64,000 nt of DNA from Lytechinus pictus (taxonomy: Eukaryota), in NCBI RefSeq assembly GCF_037042905.1, contig NC_087246.1:13844233-13908232 (forward strand). The letters run 5' to 3'. Every line of letters starts with the position of its first letter. The first letter of the stretch is position 1. The notes under the pieces were generated by a model. The model was not told the DNA's origin, searched no databases, and was given only the letters and a program-made list of their open reading frames with translations. The translations under genes were made by a program, and so were the position numbers. This document shows, piece after piece, positions 2,500-63,635 of the stretch.

Positions 2500-3244
2500 C
2501 TAAAATGAAACAGAACAGGAAGAGATGTATGAGTGCCATCAAAATAGAAATCCTTCCACAGAACATACGAGCGTTCACAGAAAATTCTATCTTGATTTGA
2601 TAAACAATACATAAATGCAGCTGTAAGATAGGATAACAGAAAAACTTTGCCAGTCAATCTCAAGTCAATAGAAATCTATGCCACAGGAAGTCTATGCACT
2701 TGGGGAAATTTTTACCTTCGTAAAAGGAAATTGGGATGTAAATTACACATATTACATTATCAGGTCTAAATACTGCCACTATCAACCATTATTTAACTTC
2801 TGAACAGTTGACTAGAGATATTAAAGGTTGACAACATATAAACTTAGCAAAAAGAAACTTTATACATGAATGGGTTCACTCAAATAGTAGGCCTACTGTT
2901 TGAATTTTACTCTTTCTAATTCTCAATATGCCCTATCTACTAAACCACTAAAATATCATTACCCTTTTATATAATTATTCATTTAATGACCATGCTCATA
3001 ATTATCATAATCCAGGGGCAGTGCTAGCACGGGGCAGCCAACGCTTATGAATTTCCAAGTAGTTTTTTTAAAAAGGTATTCAAAAACGGAAAGAAGGACA
3101 AAGATGAAGAGAGAAGAGAGTCAAAGGGACATGGAGTGTGTTGTGTAAGCCCTTGTTGCCCATTATTTTTGTTTGCTTCTATATTATTAACATGTGTGTC
3201 TATAAGAAAACTACAGATGTGACACCTATTAGTGTAAGACATAC

Positions 3245-3429
3245 CTCTGGAATGGGATACTGAGTTGGGTCTGGAGCTCCCTCTCTGCCAAAGTCTACCA
3301 TGGTGCCACACTTAGCAATGTCATTGACCCAGACACCCTCATAGACCTGACCTTTGTCCAAGTAGAAGAACTTTCCTGGTCCATTCTTCTTGTGATCCTT
3401 CCACGTGCCCTCGTAACGGTTCTCCGTCG
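3245..3429 (-). CDS. MORN3: MORN gene exon 4. ATENRYEGTWKDHKKNGPGKFFYLDKGQVYEGVWVNDIAKCGTMVDFGREGAPDPTQYPIPE.
   Basis: Acceptor ctcattcag|CGACGG and donor CCAGAG|gtatgt; 185 nt; phase-consistent with exon 3. Confidence 0.8.
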
Positions 3430-6403
3430 CTGAATGAGAGAAACCAAGAACAGACTTGCCAGATTAATCACCACTAGTTTTCCTTCAGAACAAGAGTGGT
3501 GTACATATAAGATTGAAATGGAAGATCTCCTCCATTGCTGACAAGTAATGACAAAAATGTTCAGTGTTGATCCTAATTACCACATTGAATCATTCACTTT
3601 TTTCAATAGCATTAACTTTATTGAAAAAAAAATACCGATTGTGACAAACTGAGAAGTACAAAATACAATATCTTTTCTTAACATGTAACCAGCAATACTT
3701 GGAAGTTTTAGACTAAATATAAGTCATAACCTTCCATAAAAAAAGGTGACAGACATTGAGATTTGTCTGCAAAAACCCGGTGGGCAATGCATCCGCAAGC
3801 ACCAGAAATTCAGCCTACCGCAAGAATTCTTGATGCTATGGCAGTACACAATCATGACATTTTTTTTTCATTGTATATATCTTGATATGTGTAGGACATT
3901 TATGTCTGTAGGCCTATTCATGTTTGAACAATTTACAAGAGTAGCTGTAATGGTGATTTTGGTTCTGAATCACAACCAAAGTTACTACATGTAATATTGA
4001 CTACCTTGAAACATATGATCTGATATCTTAAAACTATATATAAGATCAATAAACTGTAAAAGTATATCTTAATATCAGTCAGTCATTTAGATTATGCCCA
4101 TTGTTGCTTGAATAAAATGTATTAAAATTCCCAACCCTTTTTTCATATATATGCCAAACCACATTTAATACAAGAATGCATAGTGTAGCAACATATGCTG
4201 CTTATAATTAAATGACTGATGTCATATGCTGTATCAAATCAATTATATGAGTGTCCAATAAAAACGATTATTTACAATAATGTAAATAATTCCCATTTAC
4301 TACCAGATAAATTGCTGAAATACTAGAGGGCTTATTAAATGTAGTCTCTTGTTACAATATATTTTGTATTCACTATATCTCAGAAGCGAAATATCACAAC
4401 CAGGCCTCACAACAACTAACATATATTTTTCATGAAACAGAAAAGTTGAAATCATAATTAATAAAGACTGCCCCAGTTACAGATTTGTTGTTCTTAGCAG
4501 GAACTCCCAACTCTCTGTTCTTAGTGTGTGAAGGGTTGTGTTATCGTTGTATAAGCAGTAATGACAGAGCAATCTGGAAAATTGTAAACATGTTTATTCT
4601 CCTGTTGAATGCATTATTTTGTTTCCAGCAACCCTCTCTCTATCCCTGACCCAGACATCCTGGTTTACTGCACCTACTTTCCACATCCTCCAAATAATTT
4701 AAAGGACACATCAGTATAGCAAAGGTTACAAAATTTAAATTGAAATTGACCTCTTATACAGCATCTAAAAAAAAATGAAAAAAAAAAACAATGGGGGCTG
4801 AAGACGGAATTAACCTCCTAAATTAAAAAAAAAAAATAGCCCCTGTAAGTTACCATTTGGTTCAAATCAAACAGTACACAAATAACTTGAAATAAATGAA
4901 AATGGGAAAACTAGCCGCTGCACAGACAATACAATGTTTCACCCTGATAGAATTTTGTAATATAGGCTTTATAGCAATATCTTCGAAATAAAAACTGAAT
5001 GGGGTTGACTGTTTTTATAGACCATTATTAAATGACTCTGTACGAACAAGAAACTAAAAATTTCCAAGATGATAATACCTTCAAATTTTAAGCTGGGAAA
5101 TATGAAAATACTGGCTTTAAAAAATTCCTTACGTCAATTTGAATGTATATTTCTGGTATGAAATGGAATGTTTGTGAAACCATGCCATGTTTTGCCTCAC
5201 AGGACCAAGCTCAGTTACATTCAGGCTGCCTGCAATGTCAAAGGTGTACAGCTAAATCAATTCTATTGGGCAGATATTCTTACACAAGCAAGATATCACA
5301 GTATGAGACAGAGACAAACCATGCAGAGAACAATGGCAATAAAGATATTAAGCATACAGAGTACTTGTTTTACACAGTGTCAATGAGCAGCAATAGATTA
5401 ATAGTCTGACAAGAAATAGAGGTGAGGGGAGAAGAGAGGAGAGAAGAATGTTAGAGGGGCATATGTCTGAAAATATTCTGACCATGAAAAAAAGAACAGT
5501 AAGATGTTAAAACATCAGTATAATTCATCTCCTTTTCCTCTGTTTCTAATTTTGGTTGATTGATGGGGGACTTCCCAAGACCATTCAATATCAGACCATC
5601 ATTATAACTAATTCATGCGAATTTCAAACAATTAATACATAATAACAACAAATAAATAATAATTGTTTATTCATGTGTTATTGCAAGATGATCTGTCTAC
5701 CGTGATTGTTTAATGAATCTGGGTGGGGTTGATTGATTGTGATTGATTGTGGGTGAATGTGTGTTGGGAGATAGGGTGGATGGATGGATGTGTAGTGTGT
5801 ACTCCTCTAATGGGTCACAAGGTTTGCAAATGGTTCCAGGTTCCTCTTCTCTTTCTCATTTTAACTTGTAAATAACAATTTTTAATAAATTGCGTAAATA
5901 CGAACTGCCATTGTCATTCTTCTTTTTTTAGCTTATCATATGCAGCTGGTCATATTCTTATATCAGTTTTGATTTTTGAATTTGATGTAACTTTTTAACC
6001 TTGTCAGGACCTTGATATAAAACAGTGTTTTTATACTGATCTTGTGTTTTCCTGAATAAATATATTTCAATAAATGAAATAATAATAATAGCCAGTTATA
6101 GCGCTTTTCCCAATACGGGTTAAAGCACTTTCTAGCATATTATTACCCCAGCCATAAAGAAAATATAGATAGATTTATTAAAATGAAAAATAATGTTTTA
6201 TGATCACTAAAGTAACAAAGTGATGAATTAATAAAATATAACTTTACAAAACAAATACTGAATAGAATGAAAAATAAAGTACTGTACATAAACAAATAGG
6301 GAAATTACACTTGCAGATATTCACATCAGTTAGCAAATAAGCACATAAAAAAATTAAAACCAAAATTTATATACTAATATATGGTTTAAATAGAATAACC
6401 TAC

Positions 6404-6563
6404 CTAATCTGAGCATGCCCTGTCCATTCCTCTCATCATTGTACCACTCTCCCTCATATGTGCTTCCATCAGCAAAGTACATCCTACCCCACCCACTGCG
6501 TTTATCAGCATACCATTCTCCTTCATAATACTCTTCTGCTGAGTAAAAATGTGTTCCATAACC
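6404..6563 (-). CDS. MORN3: MORN gene exon 3. GYGTHFYSAEEYYEGEWYADKRSGWGRMYFADGSTYEGEWYNDERNGQGMLRL.
   Basis: Acceptor tgttcag|GGTTATGG and donor AGATTAG|gtaggt; 160 nt, phase 0 in, phase 1 out. Matches ORF 6354..6626(-). Confidence 0.8.
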
Positions 6564-7194
6564 CTGAACAACATTGGAAGAAGAAATATTAGAAATTAGT
6601 TTGCACGTAAAACTTGATTTTTGCATTTCATTTTTGCTTTTGAGAAATATTTACACAAGTTGATTCAATTTTATATATTTATTCATTTATAAATTTTTTC
6701 CTCATAAAAAGCAGGGTAGTCCGAGTGCCAGAGGCCTGCTTTACGAGGGAGCCTTGTTATAAAAACAATTCATATTTCAAACATTATACAATCACATTTA
6801 TAACATACACAATCAAATCAAACATCAAATATACACAATACAAAAAAGAGGGGGAAAAAATATATATGTGTATATGTATATACAGTATAAATTACACAAA
6901 CACAAATAAATAAGCTCACTTGGATTTTACTTTAAAATAGGAATTGAGGCAGAGCATTTAATACGTACAGATAACATGTTGAAAATTTTCAATGCTGTAT
7001 AGGAGAACAGCTGTTTTTTTATACTCCTTTCTTGGTTTTGCGAGATGTGATTTCTGCATTGAGAAGGATCTTGTAATGTAGAGTAATGATTAGTTCTCAG
7101 AGGCATGGTTTGCTTTAATTACCAGGACTCCAGGAGCAAGACCGTCCAGAATTTTATACAATCTGTTTTTAACAGATAGCAATTTCAAAGAATC

Positions 7195-7960
7195 CAACAA
7201 ACCCTGGGGTGATATTTTGATCATTGTCTTTTCTCCACATTTTCTCTTTTCTCAGAGATATGACAGAATCAGTATTCTGGTGGATGTCATAAGTTAACTT
7301 TTGTCATAAAAATCTTCTCTTAAGCGTGCACCAAAAATATGCGGTTCTTAAATGCACATAATCACAATATACAAGCAAATGATATGACAAAATTCATGAC
7401 ACAGTCCAGCACTTGTAGCAGTCATAAAATTTTGTCATATCTTTTAGTATCAATTCCCTGCCGACTATTAATGTCAAGCATACAATTCTATTAATTAGAT
7501 TACATTGTGGCATTAATTTCATTCATCTTCCATGACTATTTTCATAGATATTTTTTCATGCTACAATTAGTTAAGCCCTGCATATTAATTGTTTTCCCCT
7601 TTTTTCTATCTCTTCTAAAAATTCTTCACAGCTCTGTCTCTCATTCTAATTAAGCGCATCAATATAGACGCAGTTGTGTGATGCCAGCTACTGTATTGAA
7701 GATATGCCCCACTTGCCACCGGGTCTTCCTATTGATTAGAAGAACTCCCACTGGGAACTAATGGTGATTTTGATTGGTGCCTCTGAAAAGATGGGAATGA
7801 ACTTGGAGAGATATGACAAGGAAAAGACAATGTTCAGAATACCGATTTGTGACAGTATCATAGCGGTGTCATATCTCAGAGAGAAATAACAAAATTTATG
7901 ACAAAAGTTATGACAGTGTTCTAGAATACCACCCCTGGACTCTGCTATAATAATCTGCAT
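7195..7960. mobile_element. Probable foldback element with inverted ends that share the motifs cattgtcttttc, gagatatgaca and ttgtcataa
   Basis: 7213-7300 against the reverse complement of 7780-7950, imperfect. Confidence 0.35.
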
Positions 7961-8596
7961 CTAAAACCAAAAGACAAGATTTGTTTTGACACTTCTGTAT
8001 TCGCTGCAAATCTTTCACTTTTAATGATCCTGAGACAGTTGAACCTTATGTAAACATGTACACGTACAGTATATATTTCTTTTCTTTTTTTTTTTACTTG
8101 AAGAATATTCTATGATGGTAAAAAAAATGAAGATTTGAGATGGCATGATGTAATTTATAAATTTCTGAGATGTCGTTTTTCATTATCATATTCACTTGAT
8201 GATAATTCTTATTTAGTTGATTTCATCAATACTATTTTTTTGTGATAGTTAAAACGCAAACAATCAGTTTGATTGGTTCTCCAGAACTGACATATAAGAT
8301 TTAGATTAGAAAAATAATTTTCCTATTTTTCTGGGTATTCTTTTTTTCACTCCAGGTAACTTTACCAACTTCTGCAATTACATCTTATGCAGCTGTTGAT
8401 ATAGCTCTAGGGGGCCTTTTTTGATCAACTCTCACTCATCTAGAATCTATTCGGCCACATGCCACAGTTCCTATATTTCTTCTCTAGTCTTTTAATCTTA
8501 AATTTTTAGAGGAATTTCACAGAAAAAATATTTAAGGAAATATTTGACTCAAGAATCAAGTTAACATGCATGGTTTCCTGTTCTTAGAGCACTCAC

Positions 8597-8751
8597 GTGT
8601 CGTTTATCATTTTTCCAGCCACCAGAGTAGATTCTTTTGTAGCCTCCTCCCTCCATTGGGGTACTTAATGTTCCAAACCCGTTCCTCTTTCCGAACTTCC
8701 AATCTCCATCATATAAAGCTCCCGACTTCTTCCACTTGTAAGTTCCTTTGC
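8597..8751 (-). CDS. MORN3: MORN gene exon 2. GKGTYKWKKSGALYDGDWKFGKRNGFGTLSTPMEGGGYKRIYSGGWKNDKRH.
   Basis: Acceptor cattacag|GC and donor CGACAC|gtgagt on the minus strand. Phase 1 in, phase 0 out. MORN repeats match ORF 8561..8830(-). Confidence 0.8.
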
Positions 8752-9973
8752 CTGTAATGAAAGAAGCAATGTAATTACAATAAATGCAGATATATGGTTT
8801 CAGGGGTAAAAGAGAACTAATCTGGTACACATTTTAGTCTTGGATTAAATAAACAGCTCCAAGTTAGGATGGTTTGAAGAATGGTACATTCCCCCCATGG
8901 TTTAAATACCAGAGATCATTTATAGCATAAAGATACTCATGGTTTAATCATGCACAGGCAATGTTTGTTGTTCTTTTTTTGTATTAAAAGAAGTCTAGTA
9001 TTAGATTTCCTCCAATATTTATTTTATAGGTTGTTGTATGTCCAAATATGTTGTTGTATGTCCAAACAAGTTGCTTAAGTGGATAAGACGGTAATTTTGG
9101 GAAATTGCGATCAATACTTCATTAATAAAAAAAATTATCAGACAATTACAAAGCACATGTTATACTTGCAATTATTTACGCTAATTAATTTTAATGCACG
9201 ACTTTGGGGAAAATCTAGAGCAAAGGTTATTTTTTATAATCTGCTTACGTGTCTGGACAGGAATCCCAACCATACTTTATGCATTTCATTTGACAAAAAA
9301 CTTGTACTTTATGTATGGTGTGCCATAGTGTTTTCTCCAAAACATATTATGAACAATGTATAATGGAAGCATCATCTAACTTAAGCTCTATTCCCATTGT
9401 ATTAGGGCAAGGCCACCGTTTCTATTAGATATAGTAGAGTGCAAATTTCTTTATGACAGCACAATGGGGAATTCAAAAGGGCATCAAAAATTTATTAGGC
9501 CAATCATTTTAGAGGGGCATTGCCATTGAAGTCAGTCAACAGGGCATTACTGCCATGGGAGTGGCTAAGTTGGTATATAATTCACACTCTGCCATTTAAG
9601 ACGAGAAATACAACTTTACAAGTAAATATCATTTAATTTTAATAGGGTAGTCTGAAATAATAAGTGCAGCACAGAAGATCAAATACAATTGGGAAAAAAA
9701 CTATGTAACAGTAACATAAGACTTTTGGTTTTGTTCGTTTTTAAATTCTTTGCAATTTACAAGTTGATCATTACTGAAGTTGGGAGCAAACAATCAATCC
9801 AGAGCCTATCAGTATCACGTTTTTCCAATCTACATGTAGCCCCCCCCCCCAACGTTACTTATTTTTTACTTCAACTTGTACTAGAATCATAAAACCTTTG
9901 ACTTTTTTACTCTTAGTCTTAATAGTTTTGGTCTGCCTATATTAGTTTTTTTTTTTTTGAATCTCAGTCTCAC

Positions 9974-10118
9974 CATGTTTTTTGTTGTCGAGCCATTCTC
10001 CTGTATATTCATCTCCATTTACAGAATACACTGTACTCCTGACACCTTTTTTCTGTGCCTTATAGTCCCAATCATGCCACAGAGGTTGCGTTTTCTTTGG
10101 TACTTTCTGATACGGCAT
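9974..10118 (-). CDS. MORN3: MORN gene coding exon 1 (start codon at 10118-10116). MPYQKVPKKTQPLWHDWDYKAQKKGVRSTVYSVNGDEYTGEWLDNKKH, ends phase 1.
   Basis: ATG in gaaagATGc context; donor CATG|gtgag at 9973-9972; 145 nt. Confidence 0.7.
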
Positions 10119-11104
10119 CTTTCCCTGGTTGAGTTCAGCTAGATCTACAGGGTTTACTGTACGATACCCACGCCAGCGGGCTCGGCTGGTACGAGTTTCA
10201 GCAATCCGATAAAAGCAGCTGAATTTTTAGTGTCTCTTAATCTTATGCTTCAAATTAATACACCGACAGAGGAATTTCATCCGCTTTTCACAAAAACTGT
10301 GAATGTCACAGACAGTATCAGGTTAGAATCATAGATTTATAGTGTGAAATGATGAAGTAGTAAACAATTACAATCGTCTTCTTCCTTCAAGCATTGCCTT
10401 CGTTCGGAGAGAAACGGGGTACCGGTGAAAAACTATTGTTTGGGTCAAAGGTCACAAAGCTATGGTAACGATCCGCAAAAGCTCCATGCTCTCAAGCGAA
10501 TTAGAATGAGTGCATGGGGGATGTGGGCAGGTCAGTGGGTGGGGTGCGCGGGGCACGAATCTTAATATTTTTTCTCAGCTCAGGGAAGTAAGAAAAAGTG
10601 AAAATGAAATAGAAAAATGATAATTGAGAGAGGGATCACGAGTCCCTTTTTTAAGTGACGTTATTGTATTTATTTTGAAGGATAGAGAATGAGAAGGGAA
10701 CTTTGAAGATATAGCTATATATAGAACAGGGGCAGCGGCACCACCCTATTGACGGGGGGGGGGGGCAAGACGATCTTTATTTATCTCAATTAAATTACAG
10801 GGGTAATACAGAGTTACCCGACCAATACCTCTCTACTTCTTCTCTTCAGTTTCTTCTTCAGTTTAACGTTTCCCCCTTTTCACGTAAAGTTGTATCGGCG
10901 GTTGCCCTCCTGCCCCCACTGTAGTACAGCACCGCCCTGTTCTAGGAACAGGGCGGATTTTTTTTTTTTAATCATTATATGTAGGCCTTCCTTCCAGGCC
11001 ATCAACCCATATTCTTTATCGGTACCGACATGAAAAATAACAGTGAATATGGGTGTCGATCATGGGGGAATGGGGATATTTTTTTTCTTGTATTTATGTG
11101 AATG

Positions 11105-11263: not shown

Positions 11264-11498
11264 CACACTCTAAATTACAGGGATTTAAAACAAGTCCACA
11301 TGGACTGTAGTTAGGGACCAATCGAATTCCGGATTTAGTTTGAATCCTTAAGATTCATTTTTAAATCTCGAAAGATTTAAATTTAAATCATTTGAGATAT
11401 AAATTTAAGTCGTTAGGATTAAAACTAAATTCAGAAATCGATTGGTCCCTAGCTACAGTCCATCTGGACTTATTTTAAATCCCTGTAATTTAGAGTGC
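11264..11498. mobile_element. MITE of about 235 bp with terminal inverted repeats of about 60 bp (cacactctaaattacagggatttaaaacaagtccacatggactgtag...)
   Basis: 11264-11330 is the reverse complement of 11432-11498. Confidence 0.75.
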
Positions 11499-12559
11499 AG
11501 GCCGCATATGAGTGACCCCTACCCCCCCCCCGGGCCTTCTCATCCCTCCGGAGGGTACCTGTAGAGTATTTGTGAAAACAACCGATGGCAAAAAGAGATT
11601 TAGGCTATATTGGCTCACTGATATTATGCAGGTTAAAGAAAACTGTCAATACCCGCTGAGTCAATTTTGTCCAAGCGCCATCTCATGCATGGTCTTACAC
11701 TTTTTAAATATAATGTATATCTAATAAATTTCATGACATCCGCAGAAATAAGAGAAAAGGTCAAACATTACACTTGTACCTGACTTTCGGAGACTGATCT
11801 TTATCAAAGTTTGATTCTATCCAAAACAGTCTGTGGGCCTAAATTGCCTTTTTGGAATGTTCACTGTTAGGATAGTTTGCTTTTCAATTAATTACTGCAT
11901 TGCAGATCTGATTCGCCAATTTCATTTTGCCTATACTCAATCCTTTCCTCTTGCTTTCGATATGCTTTATTTTGCCACGCGAGTATAGGCCAGGCTAGGA
12001 TATAGTCTTTCAGATGGTTCAAATAATATTTATAACATAGAACTCAAATATTATTAACTCAGCCGATCGGATAAAATGTGGTTGATTTTTTCTCCCGCCA
12101 TGCCCCTCCCCATAATTATTCATCCTCCTCTGATGTGACATATCCCTGGTATAGACCTTCTAAATTATCATCTAAACCACATAGACAGCCACATGACAAG
12201 CTATAATAGTCTCATGGACTAGCTTGGGTTTGAAACGGCTTGATAGGCCTATTAAGGTTTAAAAAGTTCAATAAATGAAAATTCGGAAATAATTATTTTT
12301 ACAGATCAATTATCTGAATTGTTTCTCTTAGGTTTAATGGTTAGATATGGGGTCTTTCTTTTTGTTTTTTGTGTTTTTAATCATTATTCGATTTGCCACA
12401 GGCTGCATAATTTTTATTGTTCTTATCGGCTTTCTTTACCCATGGACCATTGGACCTAGTTCCATCCTTTATACCTTGGAAAAATAAGTATTCCATATGA
12501 ATTTGAGTTCAGTTGAAAAAAGTAGGTAAACTGTTTAAAAGGAAAACTTTGAGGAATAT

Positions 12560-12745
12560 GCCCCGGCCCCCCCCCCCCCCCCCCCCCCCGCCTCCCGGGC
12601 ACCTACCTCCGATTCGGGTTCCCAGGTGTGGGTTTGGGGCATCGATGTATAGATCAGCAAAACAATTCTGTACAATAAACAGTCATAAAAACAAACAAAA
12701 CAAAAAACATATACCGTACCCCGCCCCCCCCCCCCCCCACACACA
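12560..12745. repeat. Two long poly-C tracts (12562-12600 and 12720-12745) flanking A-rich sequence
   Basis: Homopolymer runs of at least 18 C. Confidence 0.9.
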
Positions 12746-13235
12746 CAAAAAAAAGGAGGAAAATATATGCAATGACACAGACATATAAAATTATCGGTTA
12801 CACAGTACCCTAAAATGGAATAGCCTGTCCTCCAAAATAGGCCCATAACGTAACATTATGCATTATGCATTTAAGAAATATTGTGCCCCTCCTAAAAAAA
12901 AAACGACCGCGTTCATACTTGAACGGCTGAGATCGATTTTGCTGGATGACAGTAGCCTTTATATAGTTTGAACGCGTTCATAAAATTTTCAAAATAAGTG
13001 ACGACGCCGTTGTTTACGGATGCTAGGGAACAATAGATCTACTTGAATTTTCATGTATGTTACGGAGTTTATCTTTTAAATCACAAGCAAAACTAGAGGT
13101 CTGAAGTGACTGCTTACAGGTAATACCCTTTAAAGATTAATTCTTGATATTTAGTGTGGTTTTCGTGTGATAAAATCTAGACTTAATTTAATGTCATCTC
13201 GTGTGTAGTCCGAGTCGTTTGTTTCTGTGTTACGT

Positions 13236-15730
13236 ATCATTTGGGTTACCTCGAGCGAAGTTCGTGCAGGCTCCACTCCACTACCGCTACACTACAGCTA
13301 CACTACACTCCACCTACCCGAACTTCGAGACGGTGAACCAGTTCGGATATGGATGGAAATCATGCTTATCGTAAATAACTTAATATCTTACTCTACACCC
13401 GTATTTCACTCCGTTTCCATCCTCCGGTTTATTTAATTGCTACCACCAAAGTTCCAAACAGATATCCGAACGGTTTCCGCCCGCGTGGACGGATAACGCC
13501 TTAGTTTAACGGTTTTCATTTTTCGGGTTCGGGTATCCGTGGACACTGATTCACCACTTTCCTGTCACAAAAACTCATTAAATTTAGTAAGACTCACCAA
13601 AAAATTTATAAGTTTTAGACTTTTAGTCGCCAATATAATCACCAATATCAGTTAATCTTCTTCGGTAATAATATATTCCCGCCGAAAACCATCGTTTTTA
13701 TATCAGTTTTGAAACATGACCTGTCTTATATCAGTTTTGGAGCATGACCGTCCGTGAATGGAGTAAAGTTCCATTCTGACAACGATGGCGATTTTACTAT
13801 GGTGTCGCTTAAGATCGTTTTTCTTTCCCGTCTTATGTTTTGATGATTTTAAATGCGTAACTCATAGTATATTTTCTTACCTCGACTTTCAATGCGAGTG
13901 AAGAATGAAGATAATTTGAAACCATTTAAGCGTCAAATAAATGTTGATCGGTTACTCAGGTGTGTCATGTTGTTTCTTGTAATTTATTCATCAAATGCAA
14001 AATGAATTCTACTTTTCTCACAGCAACTTTGGTTACCATGATTAGTTTTGAAACTATGAAAAGTTGAAAACGTCGAATGAATGTTGATTGCGTGTGTCAT
14101 GTTGTTTCTTGTAATTTATTCATCAAATGCAAAATGAATTTTACTTTTTCTCACAGCAACTTTGGTTACAAATGAAGATGATTATTTTTCAAACTATGAA
14201 AAGTTGAAAACGTCGAATAAATGTTGATTGCGTGTGTCATGTTGTTTTTGTGATTTGATAATGGCGGACTTTGTGATGAATGATAATGAGAGTGAAACTG
14301 AAATGAATGACGATGATGATGAGTGATGGCTAGTGAAAATGATTTTAAATAATTATCAAGATTGGTGAAGATGATAGCAATGAATGATGATGAGAATTAT
14401 GAAAGAATGATAATTGTCAATTGAAAATCTCTTTCATGAATTAATATTCAATATATAAATTACAAAACACACATTTTCCTTTCTTTCAGTTTAAATGGCA
14501 TATCCACTATAAATTTTGATATCCATCATCACGTAAACAACAATACTTAAAAGGCGGTATCGTGCCAGAAAAAAGGTTTATGATGTGCGCCCGCCGAGTA
14601 TGTGGTCGGTTGTGAATCGACGTGTTTTGCAGTAAAACTTACTGGTGATGAATGTAAGTGATTAGTTACTGATACTGTGATTAAATCTTGTCTTTAATCT
14701 TTGTTAGAAGTGTGATTATGTTTCAGAAGTTGAGAAATGAGAAGCTTGGCTATAATTTGGGGAATGGGGAGAAACCCGACATGAAAATATTCCAAGTACG
14801 ATCCCATTTGAAGGTGTAGCGAGTGTAATGTGACCAAATATATATCGGACGATTCACTCCAGACACGTCCAGCCAGGACAGCACGTGCGTGAGCTGAATG
14901 ATGTAGGCCTGTCTGGTTTTAGACTTTTAGTAATAGTAGACTCGCACTTACACTCGCCTCTGTCAAATTCATTGCATCTTATTTCATTCGATCGGAACTA
15001 AAAAATAAACACACATACTCTCGCAACCATTAAATGGGATCGTAACTAGGCCTGACTTGTATAACTCAAATAATAGTCATTTACTAATAGCTTACACAGT
15101 CATACGATCTACATTTGTAGCCGTAGCCTCACGCTAACTCACATTAGTCAAATTCAATTGCAAAACAGATTCAACCCAAAATATTCAGCTTCTCGTAATT
15201 TTGTGGTTTTCAGAAATATTTTACCGGTATTAGCGCACGCTGACTCTCGCCATCATCGGATAGGTTCAAAACTCAAATATAACTGAAAATCTTAAATATA
15301 ACTCAAATAAGTGCAAATGGATATTTATTATTATTTTTTATATTTCAGGGTAAAATTTCGGATACCCGTCCGCCGTCCGGTTTTCAGTGTCGGGTATCCG
15401 AATATTGAAATATCCGTTTCAAGTCAGGCCTACTCCGGTTATCCTCAAAATTGGTGATTTTGGGCCAGTATCTTTTTCCTCACACGTATTATTCACGGCC
15501 GATTTCTAAACATCGCATGCGGGTGTAGAGTAAGATATTAAGTTATTCATCTTTCTCGTTATATTTTTTTCTTAAATTTTTACGATAAACATGTTTCCAT
15601 CCCACCTTTGTGACTCGATATATCCGAACTGGTTCACTGTCTCGAAGTTCGGGTGGGTGGAGTGTAGTGTAGCGGTAGTGAAGTGGAGTGGAGCCTGCAC
15701 GAACTTCGCTCGAGGTAGTGCACGCTCCAC
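13236..15730. mobile_element. Non-autonomous DNA-transposon-like element of about 2.5 kb. It has TIRs of about 200 bp (ctacctcgagcgaagttcgtgcaggctccactcc...ccgtatttcactccgt.tccatcctc), subterminal inverted GGATACCCG/CGGGTATCC motifs, and an internal tandem repeat.
   Basis: 13236-13440 is the reverse complement of 15480-15730. Subterminal motifs lie at 13455-13545 and 15355-15420. Confidence 0.7.
13958..14262. repeat. Internal tandem repeat, about 2.3 copies of a unit of about 135 bp (gtgtgtcatgttgtttcttgtaatttattcatcaaatgcaaaatgaatt...)
   Basis: Direct repeats at 13958-14091, 14092-14233 and a partial copy from 14234. Confidence 0.8.
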
Positions 15731-16230
15731 TTCACTACCGCGACACTACACTCCACCTACCCGAACTTCGGGATGGTGAACTCGATCGGATATTCCAAGT
15801 GACAAAGGTGGGATGGAAATGTTATTTATTGTAAAATTTATAGAAAAAAAATATAACGAGAAAGAAAAATAGTTTAATTTCTTACTCTTCACCCGTATTT
15901 CACTCCGTGTCCATCCTCTGGTTATCCTCAAAATTGGTGATTTTTGGCAAGTATCTTTTTCCTCACACATAAAATCACCAATTTTGAGGATAACCGGAGG
16001 ATGGACACGGAGTGAAATACGGGTGAAGAGTAAGAAATTAATCTATTTTTTATTTCTCGTTATATTTTTCAAAATTTTTTTCTATAATTTTTACAATGAA
16101 TAACATTTCCATCCCACCTTTGTCACTTGGAATATCCGATCGAGTTTACCGTCCCGAAGTTCGGGTTGGTGGAGTGTAGTGTAGCGGTAGTGAAGTGGAG
16201 TGGAGCCTGCACGAACTTCGCTCGAGGTAG
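15717..16230. mobile_element. Compact foldback copy of the same TIR family, two arms of about 250 bp meeting at a perfect palindrome centred near 15960. It abuts the right TIR of the 13236-15730 element.
   Basis: 15717-15960 is the reverse complement of 15960-16230. Its terminal sequence is shared with 13236-13300. Confidence 0.7.
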
Positions 16231-17520
16231 ATTGGGGTAGACAGCTGGCAGCCGTCTGTTTCGAGGATTTTTTAAAACATTTTTTTTTTCTCCTCGTGCA
16301 CAAACGGCTCGTGATCGTGCAGCTGCCATTAGGGGATTGACAAAGCAAATTCCCCCAACGGGGCTCATTGATTTGTGTCTTTCATAAAAATTAAAAAAGA
16401 ACTGGACCAAAATAAAGATTATTATTCCTTTTTGGCTTGAATAAGCTCTAAAACGGGAAAAATAAACTTAAAAGGACAATAACAGTGAATTACTTCGGCT
16501 GTCGCGCAACTTCAGTCTTCTCTTCCTTGGTTTATCCGAACTTAATACATAATCATATGGCCATTGAGTCCCTGTACAGATCGAGTTACTCGATGCATGC
16601 AATAATAAGTAACAATTTGAATATTTGAACTGATTTTCTTACTCTTATTTCTTGTAAATATTCTCATTATCATTACCCCAAAAGTAAGTATCTCAAGCCT
16701 CACTAGGAATTAAGCCCTAGCCGAGGCTTTAGTCAGTAAATGTAAAATTCTGCCACCGTGTAACACTAACGACGTAAGTTAAAACTGGCAACGCCTCCCT
16801 TGGCTCGGTCTGTGGGATTTTGAAGCTATGCACACTTTATTTATTTTGGCTTTCGTGCAAAAATATTGCATTTCCTGTGCATTAATTTCACAAATATGTT
16901 CATGATTGTAGGATAAAATAGACAAGATGAATAAATAAAATTTAAATGCAAAATTCCAAGTTGTTGTTTTTATTTGCATTCTGTTGCGGCCTCTAGAAAA
17001 CCTGAATAGGAATCGTTTGTCACAATGCAGTTTGCTGTCACAGTTCCACACACAAAGTGAACATTTTGCATTTGAAACAGATGCGCATTGTTTAAGTGGT
17101 CCATAGCTTCATTCAGCCTTAGGACCCCGCACCATAAAACTTTTAGTCGTTGGGATCCAACAGATTATTAGAAAGAATCTACTGAATTAAATTCTTCTAA
17201 ATAAGAAGTTGAAGGATGACGGGGAGGAGGAGAAGAAGAAATGGGATCTACAAGTACATTGTACACTTGCTATTCTTTGCAAGAGTTTTATGTTACAATT
17301 AAACATTTAGATCTATTTCTTTTCCCCCACAAAGTTATGTACAGTACATGCTAAAAGAAGTTGGAAGAAATTTTAAGACAAGTTTGTAAAATCAGTAGTA
17401 TCTAAATGTTTTTTTTTTCCAATGAAAAATATGATTTTGCAAGGCTTTAGGGTAAATCAGATTAAAAAAAATACATGTATGTCAAAGAAAGGGCACATCT
17501 TGTTTGTATGGCAGTTTTTG

Positions 17521-18618
17521 TCTCACCTGCATAGCAGTGTGAGACTATAGGCGCCGCTTTTCCGACGGCGGCGGCGGCGTCAACATCAAATCTTAACCTA
17601 AGGTTAAGTTTTTGAAATGACAGCATAACTTAGCAAGTATATGGACCTAGTTCATGAAACTTGGCCATAAGGTTAATCAAGTATTACTGAACATCCTGCC
17701 TGAGATTCATGTCACATGACCAAGGTCAAAGGTGATTTAGAGTCAATGAACTTAGACCATGTTGGGGGAATCAACATCAAAATCTTAACCTAAGGTTAAG
17801 TTTTTGAAATGTCATCATAACTTAAAAATGTATGGACCTAGTTCATGAAACTTGGACATAAGGTTAATCAAGTATCACTGAACATCCTGCATGAGTTTCA
17901 CGTCACATGACCAAGGTCAAAGGTCATTTAGGGTCAATGAACTTTGGCCAAATTGGGGGTATCTGTTGAATTACCATCATAACTTTGAAATTTTATGGAT
18001 CTGATTTATGAAACTTAGACATAATAGTAATCAAGTATCACTGAACATCCTGTGCAAGTTTCAGGTCACATGATTAAGGTCAAAGGTCATTTAGGGTCAA
18101 TGATCTTTGGCCAAATTGGGTGTATTTGTTGAATTACCATCATTACTTTGAAAGTATATTGGTCTAGTTCATTAAACTTGGACATATAAGAGTAATCAAG
18201 TATCACTGAACATCCTGTGCGCATTTCAGGTCACATGACCAAGGTTAAAGGTCAATGAACTTTGGGCGAATGGGGGTATCTGTTGAATTACCATCATAAC
18301 TTTGAAAGTTTATGGATCTGATTCATGAAAGTTGGACATAAGAGTAATCAAGTATCACTGCACATCCTGTGCGAGTTTCAGGTCACATGATCAAGGTCAA
18401 AGGTCATATAAGGTCAATGAACTTTGGCCAAATTGGGGGTATTTGTTGAATTACCATCATATCTCTGTAAGTGTATTGGTCTAGTTCATAAAACGTGGAC
18501 ATAAGAGTAACCAAGTATCACTGAACATCTTGTGCGAGTTATAGTAGGTTTCAAAGTCAGCACTGCTGCTATATTGAATCGCGTGATGCAGGTGAGACGG
18601 CCAGAGGCATTCCACTTG
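17521..18618 (+). mobile_element. TIR-bounded element (termini gtctcacctgca...tgcaggtgagac) carrying an internal satellite-like array of 5-6 units of about 170-190 bp
   Basis: Units recur with ggtcaaaggtcatttagggtcaatgaactttggccaaattgggggtat and atcaagtatcactgaacatcctg. A second copy lies in inverse orientation at 62830-63610. Confidence 0.7.
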
Positions 18619-18837
18619 TTTTTTTCTTAACTTAAGTGTGATAATGAATTTCATTTTTTTTTAAACATAATTCATAAGTGGGAAAAAGATACAATTTTAT
18701 TAAACAGTCTTTACACTACAGTCTTTTGCTTTTTCTCTAAGGTTTGGTTTGATATAGGAAGGAAATATAAAATATCTATAAATCTGGTATCTAAGCAAAG
18801 CCTACATCTTTTATAACCTGCTCATCAAACGCTGATG

Positions 18838-20150: not shown

Positions 20151-20303
20151 AGAGTACTGCTAATTAAGTTCTTTTAATTGCCATTTCCAGGAACATGTAC
20201 GTATGATGGTAGTATTATCGCAGCTGCATTAAACCATGTGAGAAATCCTGTCATCTGCATTATCCTGTGATTGGATTCTTCCATTAATCAACAACAATCC
20301 GTC

Positions 20304-20961
20304 ATGTTTGGCTGGAAGAAAAAGAAGAAGGAAAACAAGAATACTTCCTCACCCTCTGGAGGTTTTTCATCATCTCTGAACAACCTCCTCAAAGGTTCGC
20401 CCAAGGCCAAGAAGGCCAATAAGCATGGTAAAACTGATATCCTCAGCGGTAGTCAGACATCAGGGAGCAACTCTCCGCACTCTGTCACCGACCGAGCCCA
20501 CCTCACAAACACTCCCACCTCGTTCATCTCCAATGGCTCAGCTTCGCCGTCCCCCAGCAACAACTCCAGCCAGATCACCTCCCAGTTTGTGCAATCCTTG
20601 CCACCGCCAGAATACTCTTTGCGTGTGCCTCCAGAACACAGTCGCCTGACGCCAAAGACAAGTAACTCTGATCACCCATCTTTGCGTGCTACTTACACTC
20701 CACCTCCTGGGTATGGCATTCTGAAGCAGGTTGGTCGACCTGGATCCTCTGCTTCTGAATTGTCCAATGCATCCAGACTCACTTCACCCTCAGCTGAAGG
20801 GGAGGATGCAGACTTTGATGTTACTGGAGAATCAAACAATGTGTCAAAGAGTGCAAACAGGAGCACTCATCCTTCCAAGCCTCTTGAGGATTGGTCAGAA
20901 GCAGAGATTCTGCAATGGTTGAATGACAGTGATCTTGAGTACTTTGCTGACATCTTCCAAG
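20304..20961 (+). CDS. Large gene exon 1. MFGWKKKKKENKN..., an S/T/P-rich disordered N-terminus, ending in the start of SAM domain 1 (...WSEAEILQWLNDSDLEYFADIFQ).
   Basis: ATG at 20304 after an in-frame TGA at 20268; donor CAAG|gtatgt; 658 nt, ends phase 1. Matches ORF 20271..21044. Confidence 0.75.
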
Positions 20962-23118
20962 GTATGTTATCACAATATTATCATGCTCATTGCTCAACAA
21001 TGTACTGTACACTGTTTAAAATTTTAAAATATCTGAAGGTCTAACTATTATAGGGGAAGTTTACCCTGACAATAAATTGGTTTAATAATTAAAAGCGGAA
21101 CAAATAGAGAAAAATATTGGCATTACAAACATGATATTGAAAGAACATCTTAACATAGAGGTACAAATGTATATGCCAGAGAAAGTATACTCCTTTTCAA
21201 TCATGTTTTTTTTTTTCTACTTTTTTTTTTGGGGGGAGAGGGGGGTTAATGTGTTGAACTTGTATTCACACAACCTAATTAAATTCTGATTGATAGATTC
21301 AATAAACATGTATACACCGAGTCATTACATGTATATTCATTTATTTGAATGTAAAATATTGGACACTTTATCCCAATTCAATACTGCATACATACGAAAT
21401 CTACTCTGAAAATGGATGAAACAAGATTGTCTTCTGGCAGTCGGTATCTTGCTTCCGTTCCCTATAAAATAATCCTAATACTTTAAGATCCAGAAGCTCA
21501 AAGTAGCATGTGTCACGCTGGAAAAACTTTGGAAGGATTTTCAAGGAGAAAATTTATTATTTGTGTCATCTGAAGTATTGTACTTAAAATGAAAGTCAAA
21601 TACATATGTAATGCATGTTTTAAACACACTTGAAAATTTTCAGAATAGATCAATTGTCCAAATGATGTCAATGATGAATAATTCCTTTTCAATCAATATT
21701 GTACTGTTTATATCATTCAAAATAGTACATTTCCTCTGCGCATCACTGTTAAAAATACATATTTATTCTTCTGTAACTTTTTAACATTATTTTCTTTTTG
21801 ACACCAAGTGTAATTCTCTCAACAAAAAGTTGTTTGTAATTATGCAGATTGATAAGAATTCGTCATTTTACATGTTGTATAGTAAGAAAGAGTGTTGAAA
21901 TACATTTTGAAAAGTGTCCTTGGTAAGTTTATACCCGTATACATGTATACAGTATTTTTTGCCAAGTACCAGCAGAATTTATTGAAAATTCCCGCCTATA
22001 TCATGTAGGTCAACTGAAATCAATCCCCAAATCCATTTTAAAGCAGCTACATGTAAAATTACCCTGCTTTTTTCTTTCAACTAAGATGTTTTTGTGTCCT
22101 AAATTTTGATGCCCTTGGTTTTATACTATACATGATGTATACATAATTTTTTAATTCCCTGTGTCTGTTTGATTATAAAGTATAGAACAAATGTTCAATT
22201 TATGTGACAAATTTGCAGCTAGTCACTGAAATACCATTAGTCCATTAGCTCAGTTATACATGTAAATGTAATTTAACTGTTATCGTGAACAGGTTTATGA
22301 AATTTACATTCATTTGTCTCAACAGTCATTAGTTCAGGACCCTGTTGCATAAAAGTTACCAATTATGGTAACTTTGCCATCCAATGGCTACTACCATGGT
22401 AACACTGAAAAACAGATGGTAACACTGAAAAACAGCCAATCAGAATCAAGGATTTCATGCAAGTTACCATTGCGTGGCAAACTTACCCCTGTTACCATGA
22501 TGGTATTTATCTTTTACACATCAGGGCCCTGGAGTTTATAACCTGTATTAAAGTTTATTGTACAAACTGCATAACTTGGTATGAATAAATTCATTCAGTG
22601 GCCAATTCTACCTTATCTCCTAATTTTCAGGTCAGGAAATATCCTTCTATTGAAGCGAAGCAGAAGTAAATGAGATACTTCCCAAATCAATTATTTCTTG
22701 TTTCCTTGCTTTTAGGGAAGTTGTTTTTCAAATTGATGAACAAACAAATGATCAATTTTGAGAAGATACATAGATCTATGATCTATATGCTTATTTTCAG
22801 TAAAGTTTTTAATTGCTACATGTACAGTATGCCAGATCTATGATGAGAGTAGATTAGGTTTAGATAGTAAAACATTAATATTTACTTTTACTATGTGGAG
22901 TCTCTAGAATACGTCATTGATCCCCTCCTCCAATGACTGTTGTTGGTTTTTTTTTTTTTGGGGGGGGGGGTTTCAGTGTAGAATTGGTTGTGTTATTTTT
23001 ATTGTATTTAATACTTGACATGTACTAATTCTGTCAAATTCATTAATTCAGATACATGTATTTCTTCCTGTTTGTGTCATTTCTTAAATATTTGCTTCCA
23101 ATTTTCACAATGATACAG

Positions 23119-31169: not shown

Positions 31170-31443
31170 GTAAGTTGCCAATGATAACAGTGCTTTGTGG
31201 CTACTACAGGGACTCTGTTGGTTTAATGGATATATTCGAATTTCAATTAATATAGACTACTTTGAGCTTAGGTTTATAGTGTGTGATAGGGTTTTTAATC
31301 AGAATAAATATGAGGACTATGATTCATGTTTGAGATTAGGTGTCATATTTGTCTTCATGTGCAGATTTTCTATTGGAGCAATTACCACTAGAGAAAACCT
31401 TCCTACCAATTGTCAAAACACAATTCTACATATTCTTTACCAG

Positions 31444-32485
31444 GTGTTATCAGCCATACCAGCGGCTATGAGAAACAGAAATACATGGCAGCGGTAAGTG
31501 TGTTACAATCAGATGACCCTGAAGACATTCAGCTCTTACCACCAGAAGAACGGGACAGTCTACTATCTAGTCCGGAGAAGAATGACAGCAGAGAAGAGAA
31601 CAAGAGACTGAAGGATGAATGGGATGACGATGATGATTGGGATGATGAAGAGGATACAGAGGAGAAGGTTGATAAGAAGAAGGTCACAGGAAGAATGGAT
31701 GCCTCGGATGAAGAAACCGATGATTCTGATGGAGATTTTGATGATGAAGATGATACAGAGAAGGAGATTGATAAGAAGAAGGTCACAGGAAAGATGGATG
31801 CTGCTGATGATGAAACCGATGATTCTGATGGTGATTGGGACGATGAAGATGATGAGGAAGAAGAAGAAGTTGTGGAACTTCTGGCAGAAATCAAAGAAAC
31901 TGAAAAAAAAGCCAAACTTGCTGCAAACCAAGCAAGTAAAGATGCAGAGAAAAATATACCCTCTGGTAAGACTGCTGATAAGGACAGCAAAGAATCAGAA
32001 GACAGCGACTTTGACTTTGACAATGATGATGAAGAAGAAGTTGAGTTTATGAATAAAAAACAGAGCAATGAAGCTCTGAAATCAGCCATGATAGTTAATA
32101 ATATCTCAGGAAATGTGAAATGTGTTGAAAATAATGCTTCCAAAAATACTGCCAATAGTACCAAGGTGCTAAAACAAGGTTCTGTTGAGAAGGACAATAT
32201 CTTGAAAGGCTCCCCCAAAGAACCTGTGACAAGAAAAACCTCTGTTGACAAAAAAGGCCTGTCTAGAACAACTTCCAGTGATTCTCTAGGTGCAGTGATC
32301 CCAGCGAATGTTTCAGTAGATGGGACTGAGCATGGGGCCAAAAAGGATTTCACAAAGGGAAGGAAGGTTGAGACTGAGATACCAGTAGAGGAGGAGAGTC
32401 CCAGGCGAGGAGATGTGAAGCCAACAAGAAGTGAGAGCAGTAGAAGTTCTGGGAGTGAGAAAGAAGAAAAGAAGAAGAAAGGAGG
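31444..32485 (+). CDS. Large gene exon 8 (1042 nt). A highly acidic, disordered region with a tandem 40-aa repeat (EEKVDKKKVTGRMDASDEETDDSDGDFDDEDDT and EKEIDKKKVTGKMDAADDETDDSDGDWDDEDDE), then a K/S-rich segment.
   Basis: Acceptor ttctttaccag|GT and a strong donor GGAGG|gtaaga. An in-frame TAA (32487-32489) lies inside the donor consensus, so the unspliced read stops there (ORF 31410..32489). Splicing continues in frame into exon 9. Confidence 0.7.
31655..31894 (+). repeat. Coding tandem duplication (2 x about 120 bp) inside exon 8
   Basis: Near-identical 120-bp units at 31655-31774 and 31775-31894, each encoding a K-rich then D/E-rich 40-aa unit. Confidence 0.8.
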
Positions 32486-32819
32486 GTAAGAAAACATGTC
32501 AATACGTTATGAAAGTCTCTTGATTTTTCACCATTGCGTTATAATAGTAACTTCCAATTCCAAAGACACATGCTGTAAACATCGTTTACTGGTAGACGAT
32601 GAACACAAAAAAAGGTGAGGAAAAAGAAGAATCCTTTATCAATCATTTAACCATTTTAGAAATCTATAGATATAAAGTTTGTTGAATTTAATGTATCTTT
32701 TTTCTTTTACCTGTTTTTCATCACTGAAGAGATGCTTTATTAATCCAACTTTTTTAGTCTAAATCTCACTATCGAAAGAAAAAGACTATTTTGAATGTGT
32801 ATGATTCTTGTTCATGTAG

Positions 32820-33062: not shown

Positions 33063-33320
33063 AGTTCTGTTATAAGGCGACCGCACACCTTACGATTGGT
33101 TTGTGACCCGATTTTAGAATAAAATGTAGTAGAATTTGATGCTAATATTGAGACTTGGAATATCTTACTGTGTAATGTTCTAAATCATCGTACGAATACC
33201 TATGTTCAAATCTGTGACTATGCTATCATCCTTCTTAGAATAAAAGCGAATTTAATATCTAGTCGTAATGACGTCATAGCAGTCGTACGAGTGGTTACGA
33301 TTTGAAAATAATTTGGCCTT
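33063..33320 (+). repeat. Dispersed repeat, copy 1 (ccgcacaccttacgattggtttgtgacccgattttagaataaaatgtagtagaatttgatgct.atattgagac.tgga..atcttactgtgtaatgttctaaatca..gtacgaatacctatgttcaaatctg)
   Basis: About 90% identical to 48893-49030. Confidence 0.7.
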
Positions 33321-38249: not shown

Positions 38250-38662
38250 GGCCCGAATTCATAAAGGTGGTTTTTAAAACCATCGGTTGAACCCATGGTT
38301 TATGCAGATTTTCTGTTTAAATTACCTCTAATTAACCGCGTATATAAAAATTATCTAATGCTGATGCACGCTTTTGACACATTGTGCCAAATTGACAGAT
38401 GTTGCCATTTGTAAGTATGCTATTTTATTTATGAGTCCACTGTTTAAAGAGTGGACTCATTAATTCAAAACAGTGGACTCCTGAATAAAATAGCGTACTT
38501 AAACATGGCAATAGGCGTCAATTTGGTGCACTGTGTCAAAAGCGAGCATCAGCATTGGACATTTTTTAATAAGCGCGGTAATTAAGTTTAATTTATACAG
38601 GAATCTGCATAAACCATGAGTTCAACCGATGGTTTTCAAAACCACCTTTGTGAATTTGGGCC
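38250..38662. mobile_element. Foldback MITE with arms of about 190 bp and a very short loop
   Basis: 38250-38440 is the reverse complement of 38475-38662 (ggcccgaattcataaaggtggtttttaaaaccatcggttgaacccatggtttatgcagatt...). Confidence 0.8.
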
Positions 38663-48380: not shown

Positions 48381-48884
48381 GTAAGTGTTTGTATTTTTGT
48401 TTATATCCTTGTGTCATTTCAGTTAGGATTGCTTGATTGTGATTTGGGCTATTACTTAAAATAATCAACTTTTTTTGTCCATACGACCTCCATTTTTCTT
48501 TATTCTTTATTTCATAGCCATTCAAGCCATGATAATTTGAGTATATTTGCAAACTTTCAAATGAACTAGAAAACTGAGAGAAATCATTTCAGCAAGGTCA
48601 TACATAGATGGGTCAGATTTACGCAAATTCCCAATCGTTAAAAGTGATGATAATCCTTCTTCTCCTCCCCCTCTTATATTGGTCTAACTGGAAAAGTATC
48701 TGTCCTTTGAATGCTAATCAGCAAATGGTGTTTTTTTGTAGGGGTCCATAAGATTCTCTTTGAGAATAAATCTTTGCCTTTAACCTTATGTGTGACTAAT
48801 TAATCATTTGATCTCATGACAGACTTGTCTTGGTCAATATAAGGAAAGCATAATAACCTGTTTAAATAAGAATGTAAAGTATTA

Positions 48885-49060
48885 AGGCCTCCGCACACCT
48901 TATGATTGGTCTGCGACCTGATTTTTGAATAAAACGTAGTCGAATTTGATGCTCATATTGAGACATGGATATCATACTGTGTAATGTTCTAAATCACTGT
49001 ACGAATACCTATGTTCAAATCTGGGACTATGCTTTGATCCTTATGTTAAGTTTACCTAAT
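48885..49060 (+). repeat. Dispersed repeat, copy 2 (3'-truncated), in another intron of the same gene
   Basis: Aligned with 33069-33210. Confidence 0.7.
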
Positions 49061-58884: not shown

Positions 58885-59303
58885 CTGCAACAAAAGATGA
58901 TGAACATATGAGTCAGATTATTGTCACTTCCATATGCATACATGTATATGACCCTAATTTAAAGTTCATCCCAATGTTTGTTCAGTCATTCTTGAGTAAC
59001 TGTCTTCATAATGACCTCAAGTGATCTTTCGATGGTAAAACCCTAAAATCTAATCAGATAATAGTCCCTCCTATAGACATACTTGACCAAAGTTTAAAGT
59101 AGTTCCAATAAACAATTCATTCTAGGGTGATCACTAGAACATAAAATAGACTACTGGACAAATAAAAATAGCTTTTTAAAAGACAAAGTTGTACTATTAG
59201 TTTTTCAATTAGTTCATTCTGCTTGACATTTTTAATGTCCCTGACGGACGTATAATCTGTGTATAAATGCAATAAAATATATCAGTAATGTGCAGTAACT
59301 AAC

Positions 59304-60604: not shown

Positions 60605-60640
60605 CTATTAAATCAAATTAAATCAAATCAAATCATTTAA

Positions 60641-63610: not shown

Positions 63611-63635
63611 AAAAACAACAAACAATCTGTCTTAC

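Follow-up and report, generated by a model that had tools for sequence, protein, structure and literature searches.

The 64,000-nt stretch of DNA analysed here (the window, to which all coordinates refer) is eukaryotic nuclear DNA of about 34% GC. The region under study, 13247-16229, carries a dense complex of inverted repeats. It is likely a nested pile-up of three non-autonomous class II transposons in a bilaterian nuclear genome. Two of them, FB1 (13247-13429 plus 15433-15717) and FB2 (15718-16229), are predicted from their sequence to be two copies of one non-coding foldback miniature inverted-repeat transposable element (MITE) of about 0.5 kb. The third is a 2003-bp insert, X, that splits FB1. 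The original prediction for this DNA had described a 2.5-kb element with long terminal inverted repeats (TIRs) abutting a foldback. That 2.5-kb element is instead a foldback of about 460 bp split by X, because removal of X restores collinearity with FB2 and X is bordered by an exact 8-bp duplication. The corrected annotation counts three elements, not two, and reassigns the motif arrays to the insert. The complex is ordinary transposon debris and no new kind of element.

A foldback element interrupted by an insertion

The components of the complex, in order of position, are:

13247-13429, + strand: FB1 left arm (copy A), 183 nt, tip TACCTCGAGCGAAGTTCG...; 11-bp unit CACTACAGCTA in 2.6 tandem copies at 13279-13307; CGGATA at 13344
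13422-13429, + strand: target-site duplication, copy 1, CTCCGGTT; belongs to the FB1 left arm and matches 15433-15440 at 8/8 positions
13430-15432, no strand assigned: insert X, a 2003-bp non-coding composite element nested in FB1
15433-15440, + strand: target-site duplication, copy 2, CTCCGGTT
15441-15717, no strand assigned: rest of FB1, with inner stem to 15461, loop-equivalent 15462-15488 and right arm (copy B) 15489-15717, intact tip ...CGAACTTCGCTCGAGGTA
15718-15944, + strand: FB2 left arm (copy C), adjoining the FB1 right tip directly
15945-15970, no strand assigned: FB2 hairpin loop, 26 nt
15971-16229, - strand: FB2 right arm (copy D), intact tip; single mirror copy of the 8-mer, AACCGGAG, at 15992-15999

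The similarity of copy A to the other arms ends at 13429 (...CCATCCTCCGGTT), and foldback similarity restarts at 15433. The 8-mer that precedes X recurs exactly behind it, a flank match with an empirical chance of 4.5e-5, and on the + strand of the window CTCCGGTT is found only at these two junctions. Deletion of 13430-15440 yields a 460-bp sequence that is collinear with full-length FB2 and seamless at the join, and the remainder of FB1 matches FB2 15916-16229 directly.

The order of events can be read from the mirror arm. The reverse complement of arm D runs ...CCATCCTCCGGTTATCCTCAAAATTGG... unbroken, as FB1 does once X is removed, and two inverted-repeat pairs overlap in arm D on exactly the 8 nt 15992-15999. 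Because this arm holds a single unbroken copy of the 8-mer, the arm with the interruption must be the derived one and X an insertion, which went into the FB1 left arm some 30 nt away from the apex of the hairpin. FB2 serves as a paralogous empty site for X. A palindrome is in this respect its own empty-site control, as the mirror arm gives the direction of the event without a second genome.

The two units had been delimited at 13236-15730 and 15717-16230; two units do lie there, and their actual boundaries are 13247-15717 and 15718-16229. The target-site duplications expected at the flanks were found in part, as an exact 8-bp duplication around X and as a match of only 7/9 at the outer flanks of the foldbacks.

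The foldback family

Four copies of the terminal module, about 180-260 nt in length, alternate in orientation (+, -, +, -), with copy A running rightwards from 13247, B leftwards from 15717, C rightwards from 15718 and D leftwards from 16229. This fourfold repetition had been predicted and stands, with no match expected by chance. The arms measure 183 nt in A, 229 nt in B, 227 nt in C and 259 nt in D. A, B and D agree at every one of their outermost 36 nt (TACCTCGAGCGAAGTTCGTGCAGGCTCCACTCCACT), a string matched 0 times in 100 shuffles, and all four copies share a 27-nt core with no more than one mismatch, against a chance expectation of 0. No further copy of the module occurs elsewhere in the 64-kb window. 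In copy C the 17 nt at the very tip (TACCTCGAGCGAAGTTC) are missing, as is one CTCCA unit.

The module tip contains TACCTCGAGCG, in which the 6-bp CTCGAG is the only palindromic part; a fully palindromic terminus had been proposed, and the string given for it (tacctcgaggta) is absent from the window. In each arm the tip 9-mer has an inverted copy about 60 nt further in (CGAAGTTCG ... CGAACTTCG), and the 11-bp unit CACTACNGCTA is repeated in tandem 2 to 2.6 times. Each foldback arm also holds one CGGATA hexamer (P ~0.008 by chance).

FB2 spans 512 bp and folds into a near-perfect hairpin around its 26-nt loop (-246.6 kcal/mol, z = -40.7), which agrees with the expectation of a pure foldback of about 0.5 kb. 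FB1 without X is 460 bp long, and the two are identical at 377/425 positions (88.7%). Arm identity reaches 95.6% between C and D and 91.8% between A and B, as compared with 84-90% between elements, and informative sites group (A,B) versus (C,D) in 10/10 cases. FB1 and FB2 are, for these two reasons, distinct copies.

Both FB2 and FB1 minus X have the structure that defines a MITE, with TIRs that form most of an element shorter than about 800 bp. The coding capacity absent from MITEs is absent here too, since no open reading frame longer than 95 amino acids occurs in 13000-16500. A 555-amino-acid concatenate of the open frames across the arms had no match at E <= 0.1 in a collection of 5.8 billion protein clusters from which the host is absent. 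Similarly, exact-pattern searches with the 27-mer core and the 26-nt tip returned no match in JGI metagenomes, IMG/VR viral contigs or GTDB genomes, none of which includes the host genome. A structured-RNA explanation was dropped, as an Rfam scan of the whole window matched no family.

Anatomy and class of the insert

The features distinguished within X are:

13463-13539, no strand assigned: left hexamer cluster, TATCCG at 13463, CGGATA at 13490 and TATCCG at 13534 (inside CGGGTATCC)
13698-13749, + strand: 28-bp tandem duplication, TTATATCAGTTTTGRARCATGACC
13910-14256, + strand: 132-140-bp tandem repeat, about 2.2-2.5 copies; Tandem Repeats Finder score 473 with 90% matches at 13960-14256, weaker third unit from 13910
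14797-15044, no strand assigned: candidate 248-bp MITE, inverted ends TACGATCCCATTT.../...AAATGGGATCGTA, TA at both tips, 13 nt perfect and 28 nt at 79% complementarity
15047-15059, + strand: inverted internal copy of the X right tip, TAGGCCTGACTTG, without a matching 8-bp flank
15257-15416, no strand assigned: right hexamer cluster, CGGATA at 15257 and 15359, TATCCG at 15395 and 15411; holds GGATACCCG (15360) and CGGGTATCC (15391)
15420-15432, - strand: right tip of X, ...CAAGTCAGGCCTA (reverse complement TAGGCCTGACTTG)

The hexamer CGGATA/TATCCG marks both ends of X: the left 111 nt contain three copies and the right 183 nt contain four, while it does not occur in the 1709-nt interior. Seven copies in the terminal 294 nt compare with 0.0096 expected (P = 1.5e-18), and 11 of the 13 copies in the window fall in the region under study. 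Inverted motif arrays had been ascribed to the ends of the foldbacks. The hexamer does recur in both orientations, and the 9-mer GGATACCCG/CGGGTATCC occurs only three times; the arrays sit in the ends of X, with a single hexamer in each foldback arm. A 10-mer shared between X and the arms (ATATCCGAAC) was given no weight, as about one such match is expected by chance.

The internal tandem repeat of about 135 bp is confirmed, with a period of 132-140 bp and 2.2 copies at 13960-14256, and belongs to X. The candidate MITE at 14797-15044 is of borderline significance (E = 0.049 within X) and stops 2 nt before the internal copy of the right tip, which suggests that X is layered from several elements. 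This internal copy has no matching 8-bp flank and so did not act as the left end of the inserted element. A 386-bp unit at 15047-15432, with 13-nt perfect inverted ends, was likewise tried as the true inserted element and rejected, since its left flank does not repeat CTCCGGTT. X also contains an exact 16-nt direct repeat, GTTTTAGACTTTTAGT, at 13612-13627 and 14916-14931, the second copy lying directly 3' of a degenerate X tip motif (TAGGCCTGTCTGG at 14904).

Six-frame translations of X gave no Pfam match. Together with the lack of long open reading frames, this supports the earlier view of nested and abutting non-autonomous cut-and-paste transposons. Pfam scans of 25 other long frames of the window revealed no transposase domain.

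The TIRs of hAT elements are about 10-25 bp long and usually begin with YARNG. X shares with hAT elements an 8-bp target-site duplication and subterminal repeats within about 200 bp of both ends, and it does not have short matching TIRs. Its ends show no repeat in direct orientation either, beyond the short motif. By analogy, X may be described as hAT-like or Mutator-like element (MULE)-like in behaviour, and as a member of neither family.

Target site and the junction between the foldbacks

The outer flanks of the complex are:

13238-13246, no strand assigned: left genomic flank, CATTTGGGT, candidate 9-bp duplication partner of 16230-16238
16230-16238, no strand assigned: right genomic flank, GATTGGGGT, candidate 9-bp duplication partner of 13238-13246

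These flanks agree at 7/9 positions, as do 0.3% of random site pairs, a value that becomes about 0.03-0.06 after some 20 alternative lengths and boundaries are taken into account. The flanks of FB1 itself and the other pairings give no duplication of 8-11 bp. TA is the outermost dinucleotide at all three intact tips (13247-8, 15716-7 and 16228-9); it is self-complementary and hence inseparable from the inverted repeat.

Two further assignments of the foldback family were tried and discarded. The P superfamily (Galileo-like) makes duplications of 7 bp, rarely 8 bp, and the outer flanks mismatch at 4/7 positions for k = 7 and at 3/8 for k = 8. The TTAA duplication of piggyBac is not seen, the flanks reading ...GGGT and GATT... 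instead. The arms, at 183-259 nt, exceed the 100 bp that characterize the long TIRs of MULEs. By analogy, the combination of long TIRs, palindromic tip motif, subterminal tandems and 9-bp candidate duplication would resemble the animal MULEs classed as "type 2 foldback". As to superfamily, a TA-type and an 8-9-bp-type assignment are equally plausible, each falling somewhat short of an even chance, and some other type is considerably less likely than either.

A perfect palindrome had been thought to join the foldbacks. In this region no perfect palindrome with zero spacer exceeds 10 bp (AAACATGTTT), FB2 has its 26-nt loop, and the junction of copies B and C is asymmetric by 17 nt: the intact right tip of FB1, including its TA, is joined to nucleotide 18 of the FB2 left arm. 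Nesting of FB1 into the tip of FB2 was rejected, as the sequence to the left of FB1 shows neither the 17-nt stub nor the duplication that such an event would leave. Three accounts of this junction can be proposed. FB1 could have entered a TA flanking FB2, followed by the loss of 15 nt. Alternatively, a single insertion with a 9-bp duplication may have been duplicated locally, after which the arms evolved in concert, or a break at the FB2 left tip may have been repaired by copying another family member.

The rare CGGATA hexamer common to X and the foldbacks, together with the 8-bp duplication and the 9-bp candidate, is the basis for a more speculative proposal. A single MULE- or hAT-like transposase producing 8-9-bp duplications could serve both the foldback family and X, and the junction and the 7/9 flanks would record a tip break repaired by copying a diverged family member. 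We consider this improbable. If true, it would mean that templated repair can give rise to tandem transposon arrays, here in a marine animal lineage that is unstudied.

Proposed origin and competing explanations

Under the preferred reading, FB1 and FB2 would represent one foldback MITE family, with arms of about 230-260 nt around a loop of about 26 nt and no gene. They lie head to tail, with the right tip of FB1 intact and the left tip of FB2 shortened by 17 nt. X integrated later into the left arm of FB1, through a staggered cut that duplicated the 8 bp CTCCGGTT. All three elements may have been moved in trans by transposases encoded elsewhere. For X, this would be a hAT- or MULE-type enzyme with an 8-bp stagger; for the foldback family, either a TA-targeting (Tc1/mariner-like) enzyme or one with an 8-9-bp stagger (MULE-like). 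No host function would be expected beyond possible hairpin formation and recombination.

Several points weigh against this reading. Copies are known only from this locus, two of the foldback family and one of X, and the mobility of the foldback family is read from its structure, without dispersed copies. X has no detectable TIR, its left tip being TATTTAATTGC and its right tip TAGGCCTGACT, and the inverted alignment of its terminal 200 nt is equalled by 48/300 shuffles; a missing TIR is atypical for both hAT elements and MULEs. The abutment of FB1 and FB2 with 17 nt missing is not accounted for by simple insertion, and the target duplication of the foldback family itself is ambiguous between TA and the 7/9 outer flanks.

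On the original prediction, a single 2.5-kb non-autonomous element (13247-15717) would possess TIRs of about 200 bp and motif arrays of its own, and FB2 would be its deletion derivative, formed between the 8-bp microhomologies CTCCGGTT. Microhomology-mediated deletion, by which MITEs are documented to form (PMC3814204), can in principle account for direct repeats around a segment that is absent from a relative. The rare hexamer of the X ends is also found once in each foldback arm, which may point to a connection between X and the arms. The mirror arm argues against this origin. Arm D is unbroken at the point where X splits FB1, the 8-mer is single there, and in a palindromic element the interrupted arm is the derived one whichever copy is older. 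The ends of X are, moreover, inverted copies neither of each other nor of the arms, and an undivided 2.5-kb element is very improbable. X could also be filler DNA caught during double-strand break repair near the FB1 apex, with the 8-bp duplication produced by fill-in of a staggered break. Its lack of TIRs, its mosaic of tandem repeats and small inverted-repeat units, and its position about 30 nt from the apex would suit such an origin, since palindrome apices are prone to breakage. Yet the restriction of the hexamer to the ends of X is a transposon-end signature, and an exact 8-bp duplication is standard for hAT- and MULE-type integration, so that the filler explanation appears quite improbable.

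A different question is whether FB1 and FB2 are independent at all. They may descend from one insertion, with a 9-bp duplication at the outer flanks, followed by local duplication or by foldback-templated repair of a transposase-induced break at the left tip, which would have produced the right-to-left junction without the 17 nt. The agreement between CATTTGGGT and GATTGGGGT, the lack of an 8-11-bp duplication from any other pairing, and the shortening of copy C exactly at its junction with the intact tip of B all speak for this. However, the 11% difference between FB1 and FB2 and the uniform grouping of the informative sites would then require concerted evolution within copies, and the flank match loses much of its force once the lengths and boundaries tried are counted. 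TA at all tips is also the simpler solution, with FB1 inserted into a TA by FB2 and 15 nt lost afterwards. A single insertion is somewhat unlikely. Finally, inverted duplications abutting each other are a recognised class of assembly artefact, as produced by a chimeric or palindromic long read. Here several indels and a divergence of 4-16% separate the four copies, where artefactual palindromes would be near identical; the nested insertion has a clean duplication, and the window contains other, unrelated MITEs of comparable shape. An artefact is extremely improbable, and the nested pile-up of three elements is retained as the preferred reading.

Genomic context and significance

At least four other, unrelated hairpin MITEs are present in the window, which marks the genome as MITE-rich. 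Two hairpins have TTAA at both tips, at 114-649 (536 bp, TTAA followed by AGGAGAATGAAA...) and 51793-52392 (600 bp, TTAA followed by AGGTCAAGTCCACCCC...). They share a stretch of about 70% identity (541-610 versus 52280-52349) and look like piggyBac-type TTAA-target MITEs, unrelated to FB1 and FB2. A 413-bp hairpin MITE at 38250-38662 has a GGCCC tip (tips GGCCCGAATTC...) and flanks ttt/tta; it is Tourist/Harbinger-like in its tip and in its probable 3-bp target. The 232-bp palindrome at 11266-11497 has 116-nt arms that are 86% complementary and tips CACTCTAAATTACAGGG, and is the only element of the window with zero spacer.

Other repeats are also found. A tandem array of units of about 163/191 bp occupies 17514-18620, and an inverted copy of 95% identity lies 45 kb away at 62830-63616, among SPT6 exons; this is a satellite-like or composite repeat family. 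A direct repeat of about 160 bp, probably also an interspersed element, occurs at 33073-33233 and 48883-49042, with 87-92% identity between copies separated by 15.8 kb. Two poly-C tracts of about 20-25 C, at 12556-12593 and 12709-12746, are 153 bp apart and located about 500 bp upstream of the transposon cluster.

Host gene exons lie on the minus strand at 3000-10300 and 59200-63800. They include MORN repeats (PF02493) at 6357-6650, and SPT6 exons with an S1 and a tandem SH2 domain (PF14633) at 59-64 kb, both on the minus strand. Compared with annotated orthologues from vertebrates, hemichordates and insects, the SPT6 exons reach only 57-69% identity, and no protein close to identical is recorded, which indicates that public protein sets cover this host lineage poorly. 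The SPT6 exons place the host no more precisely than among the bilaterian animals, and it is probably marine. An exon at 20271-21041 has its two nearest relatives at 73% and 70% identity, one of them in a TARA Oceans metagenome and one in the SRA run SRR28370578. A long exon-like frame at 31410-32489 on the + strand encodes a highly acidic protein with a 99-bp (33-amino-acid) coding tandem repeat at 31629-31826 and belongs to no Pfam family.

The main consequence of this analysis is for annotation. A naive reading of long TIRs with subterminal motifs would fuse two unrelated elements into one false consensus. The host genome carries a foldback MITE family that can be catalogued, together with a hexamer-bearing non-autonomous element. 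Hairpins of this type can act as hotspots at which DNA breaks, recombines ectopically or yields small RNAs, and nothing here points to a host function. The importance of the complex beyond annotation is small.

Comparison with known systems

MITE families in which the whole sequence folds back are well known, for example PALTA and PALTTAA in C. elegans and Hairpin in Arabidopsis (PMC3814204). The FB elements are like PALTA and Hairpin MITEs in their size of about 0.5 kb, their non-coding nature and their single hairpin with a short loop, and like PALTA and Stowaway-like families in the TA at every intact tip. Unlike in those families, the host is a different animal, and the likeness is one of structure, not of sequence comparison.

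Drosophila Galileo, Kepler and Newton (P superfamily; PMC4168063) show a comparable overall picture of long TIRs, internal tandem repeats of about 140 bp, nested transposons and structural dynamism. Unlike Galileo, the FB flanks do not form a 7-bp or 8-bp duplication, the tandem repeat lies in the nested insert and not in the TIRs, and the FB elements are much smaller.

In animal MULEs, TIRs longer than 100 bp go together with duplications of 8-9 bp, a palindromic motif at the terminus and short tandem repeats in subterminal position (PMC5225508). The FB arms are like those of the Aedes aegypti Muta1-14 MULEs and their non-autonomous derivatives (PMC5225508) in their length, in CTCGAG within TACCTCGAGCG and in the 11-bp subterminal tandem. 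The 8-9-bp duplications of the Muta elements also have a counterpart in the exact 8 bp of X and a candidate one in the 7/9 outer flanks of the foldbacks. In contrast to Muta1, with about nine copies of its unit, the FB arms have about two, their 9-bp duplication is imperfect and statistically weak, and the window holds no MULE transposase or autonomous partner.

For X, the closest parallels are hAT elements such as maize Ds and those with Hermes/hobo-type ends. Ac carries AAACGG hexamers in its terminal 200 bp and makes 8-bp duplications, and Ds elements contain heterogeneous filler (PMC3260210). The subterminal repeats of Hermes are bound by a BED domain and are asymmetric between the ends (PMC10368747). 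X differs from these systems in its tips, as the right tip (TAGGCC...) and the left tip (TATTTA...) do not match, compared with an 11-bp TIR in Ac. Its hexamer, CGGATA, is neither AAACGG of Ac nor the Hermes motif, and no hAT transposase (BED + DDE + hATC) was found in the window. Conversely, X shares with hAT elements the 8-bp duplication, hexamers in both orientations within the terminal 110-180 nt, asymmetric ends and a filler interior (PMC3260210, PMC10368747). The hexamers at the ends of X, as putative transposase-binding sites, correspond in layout to the transposase-binding subterminal repeats of hAT elements and of some MULEs.

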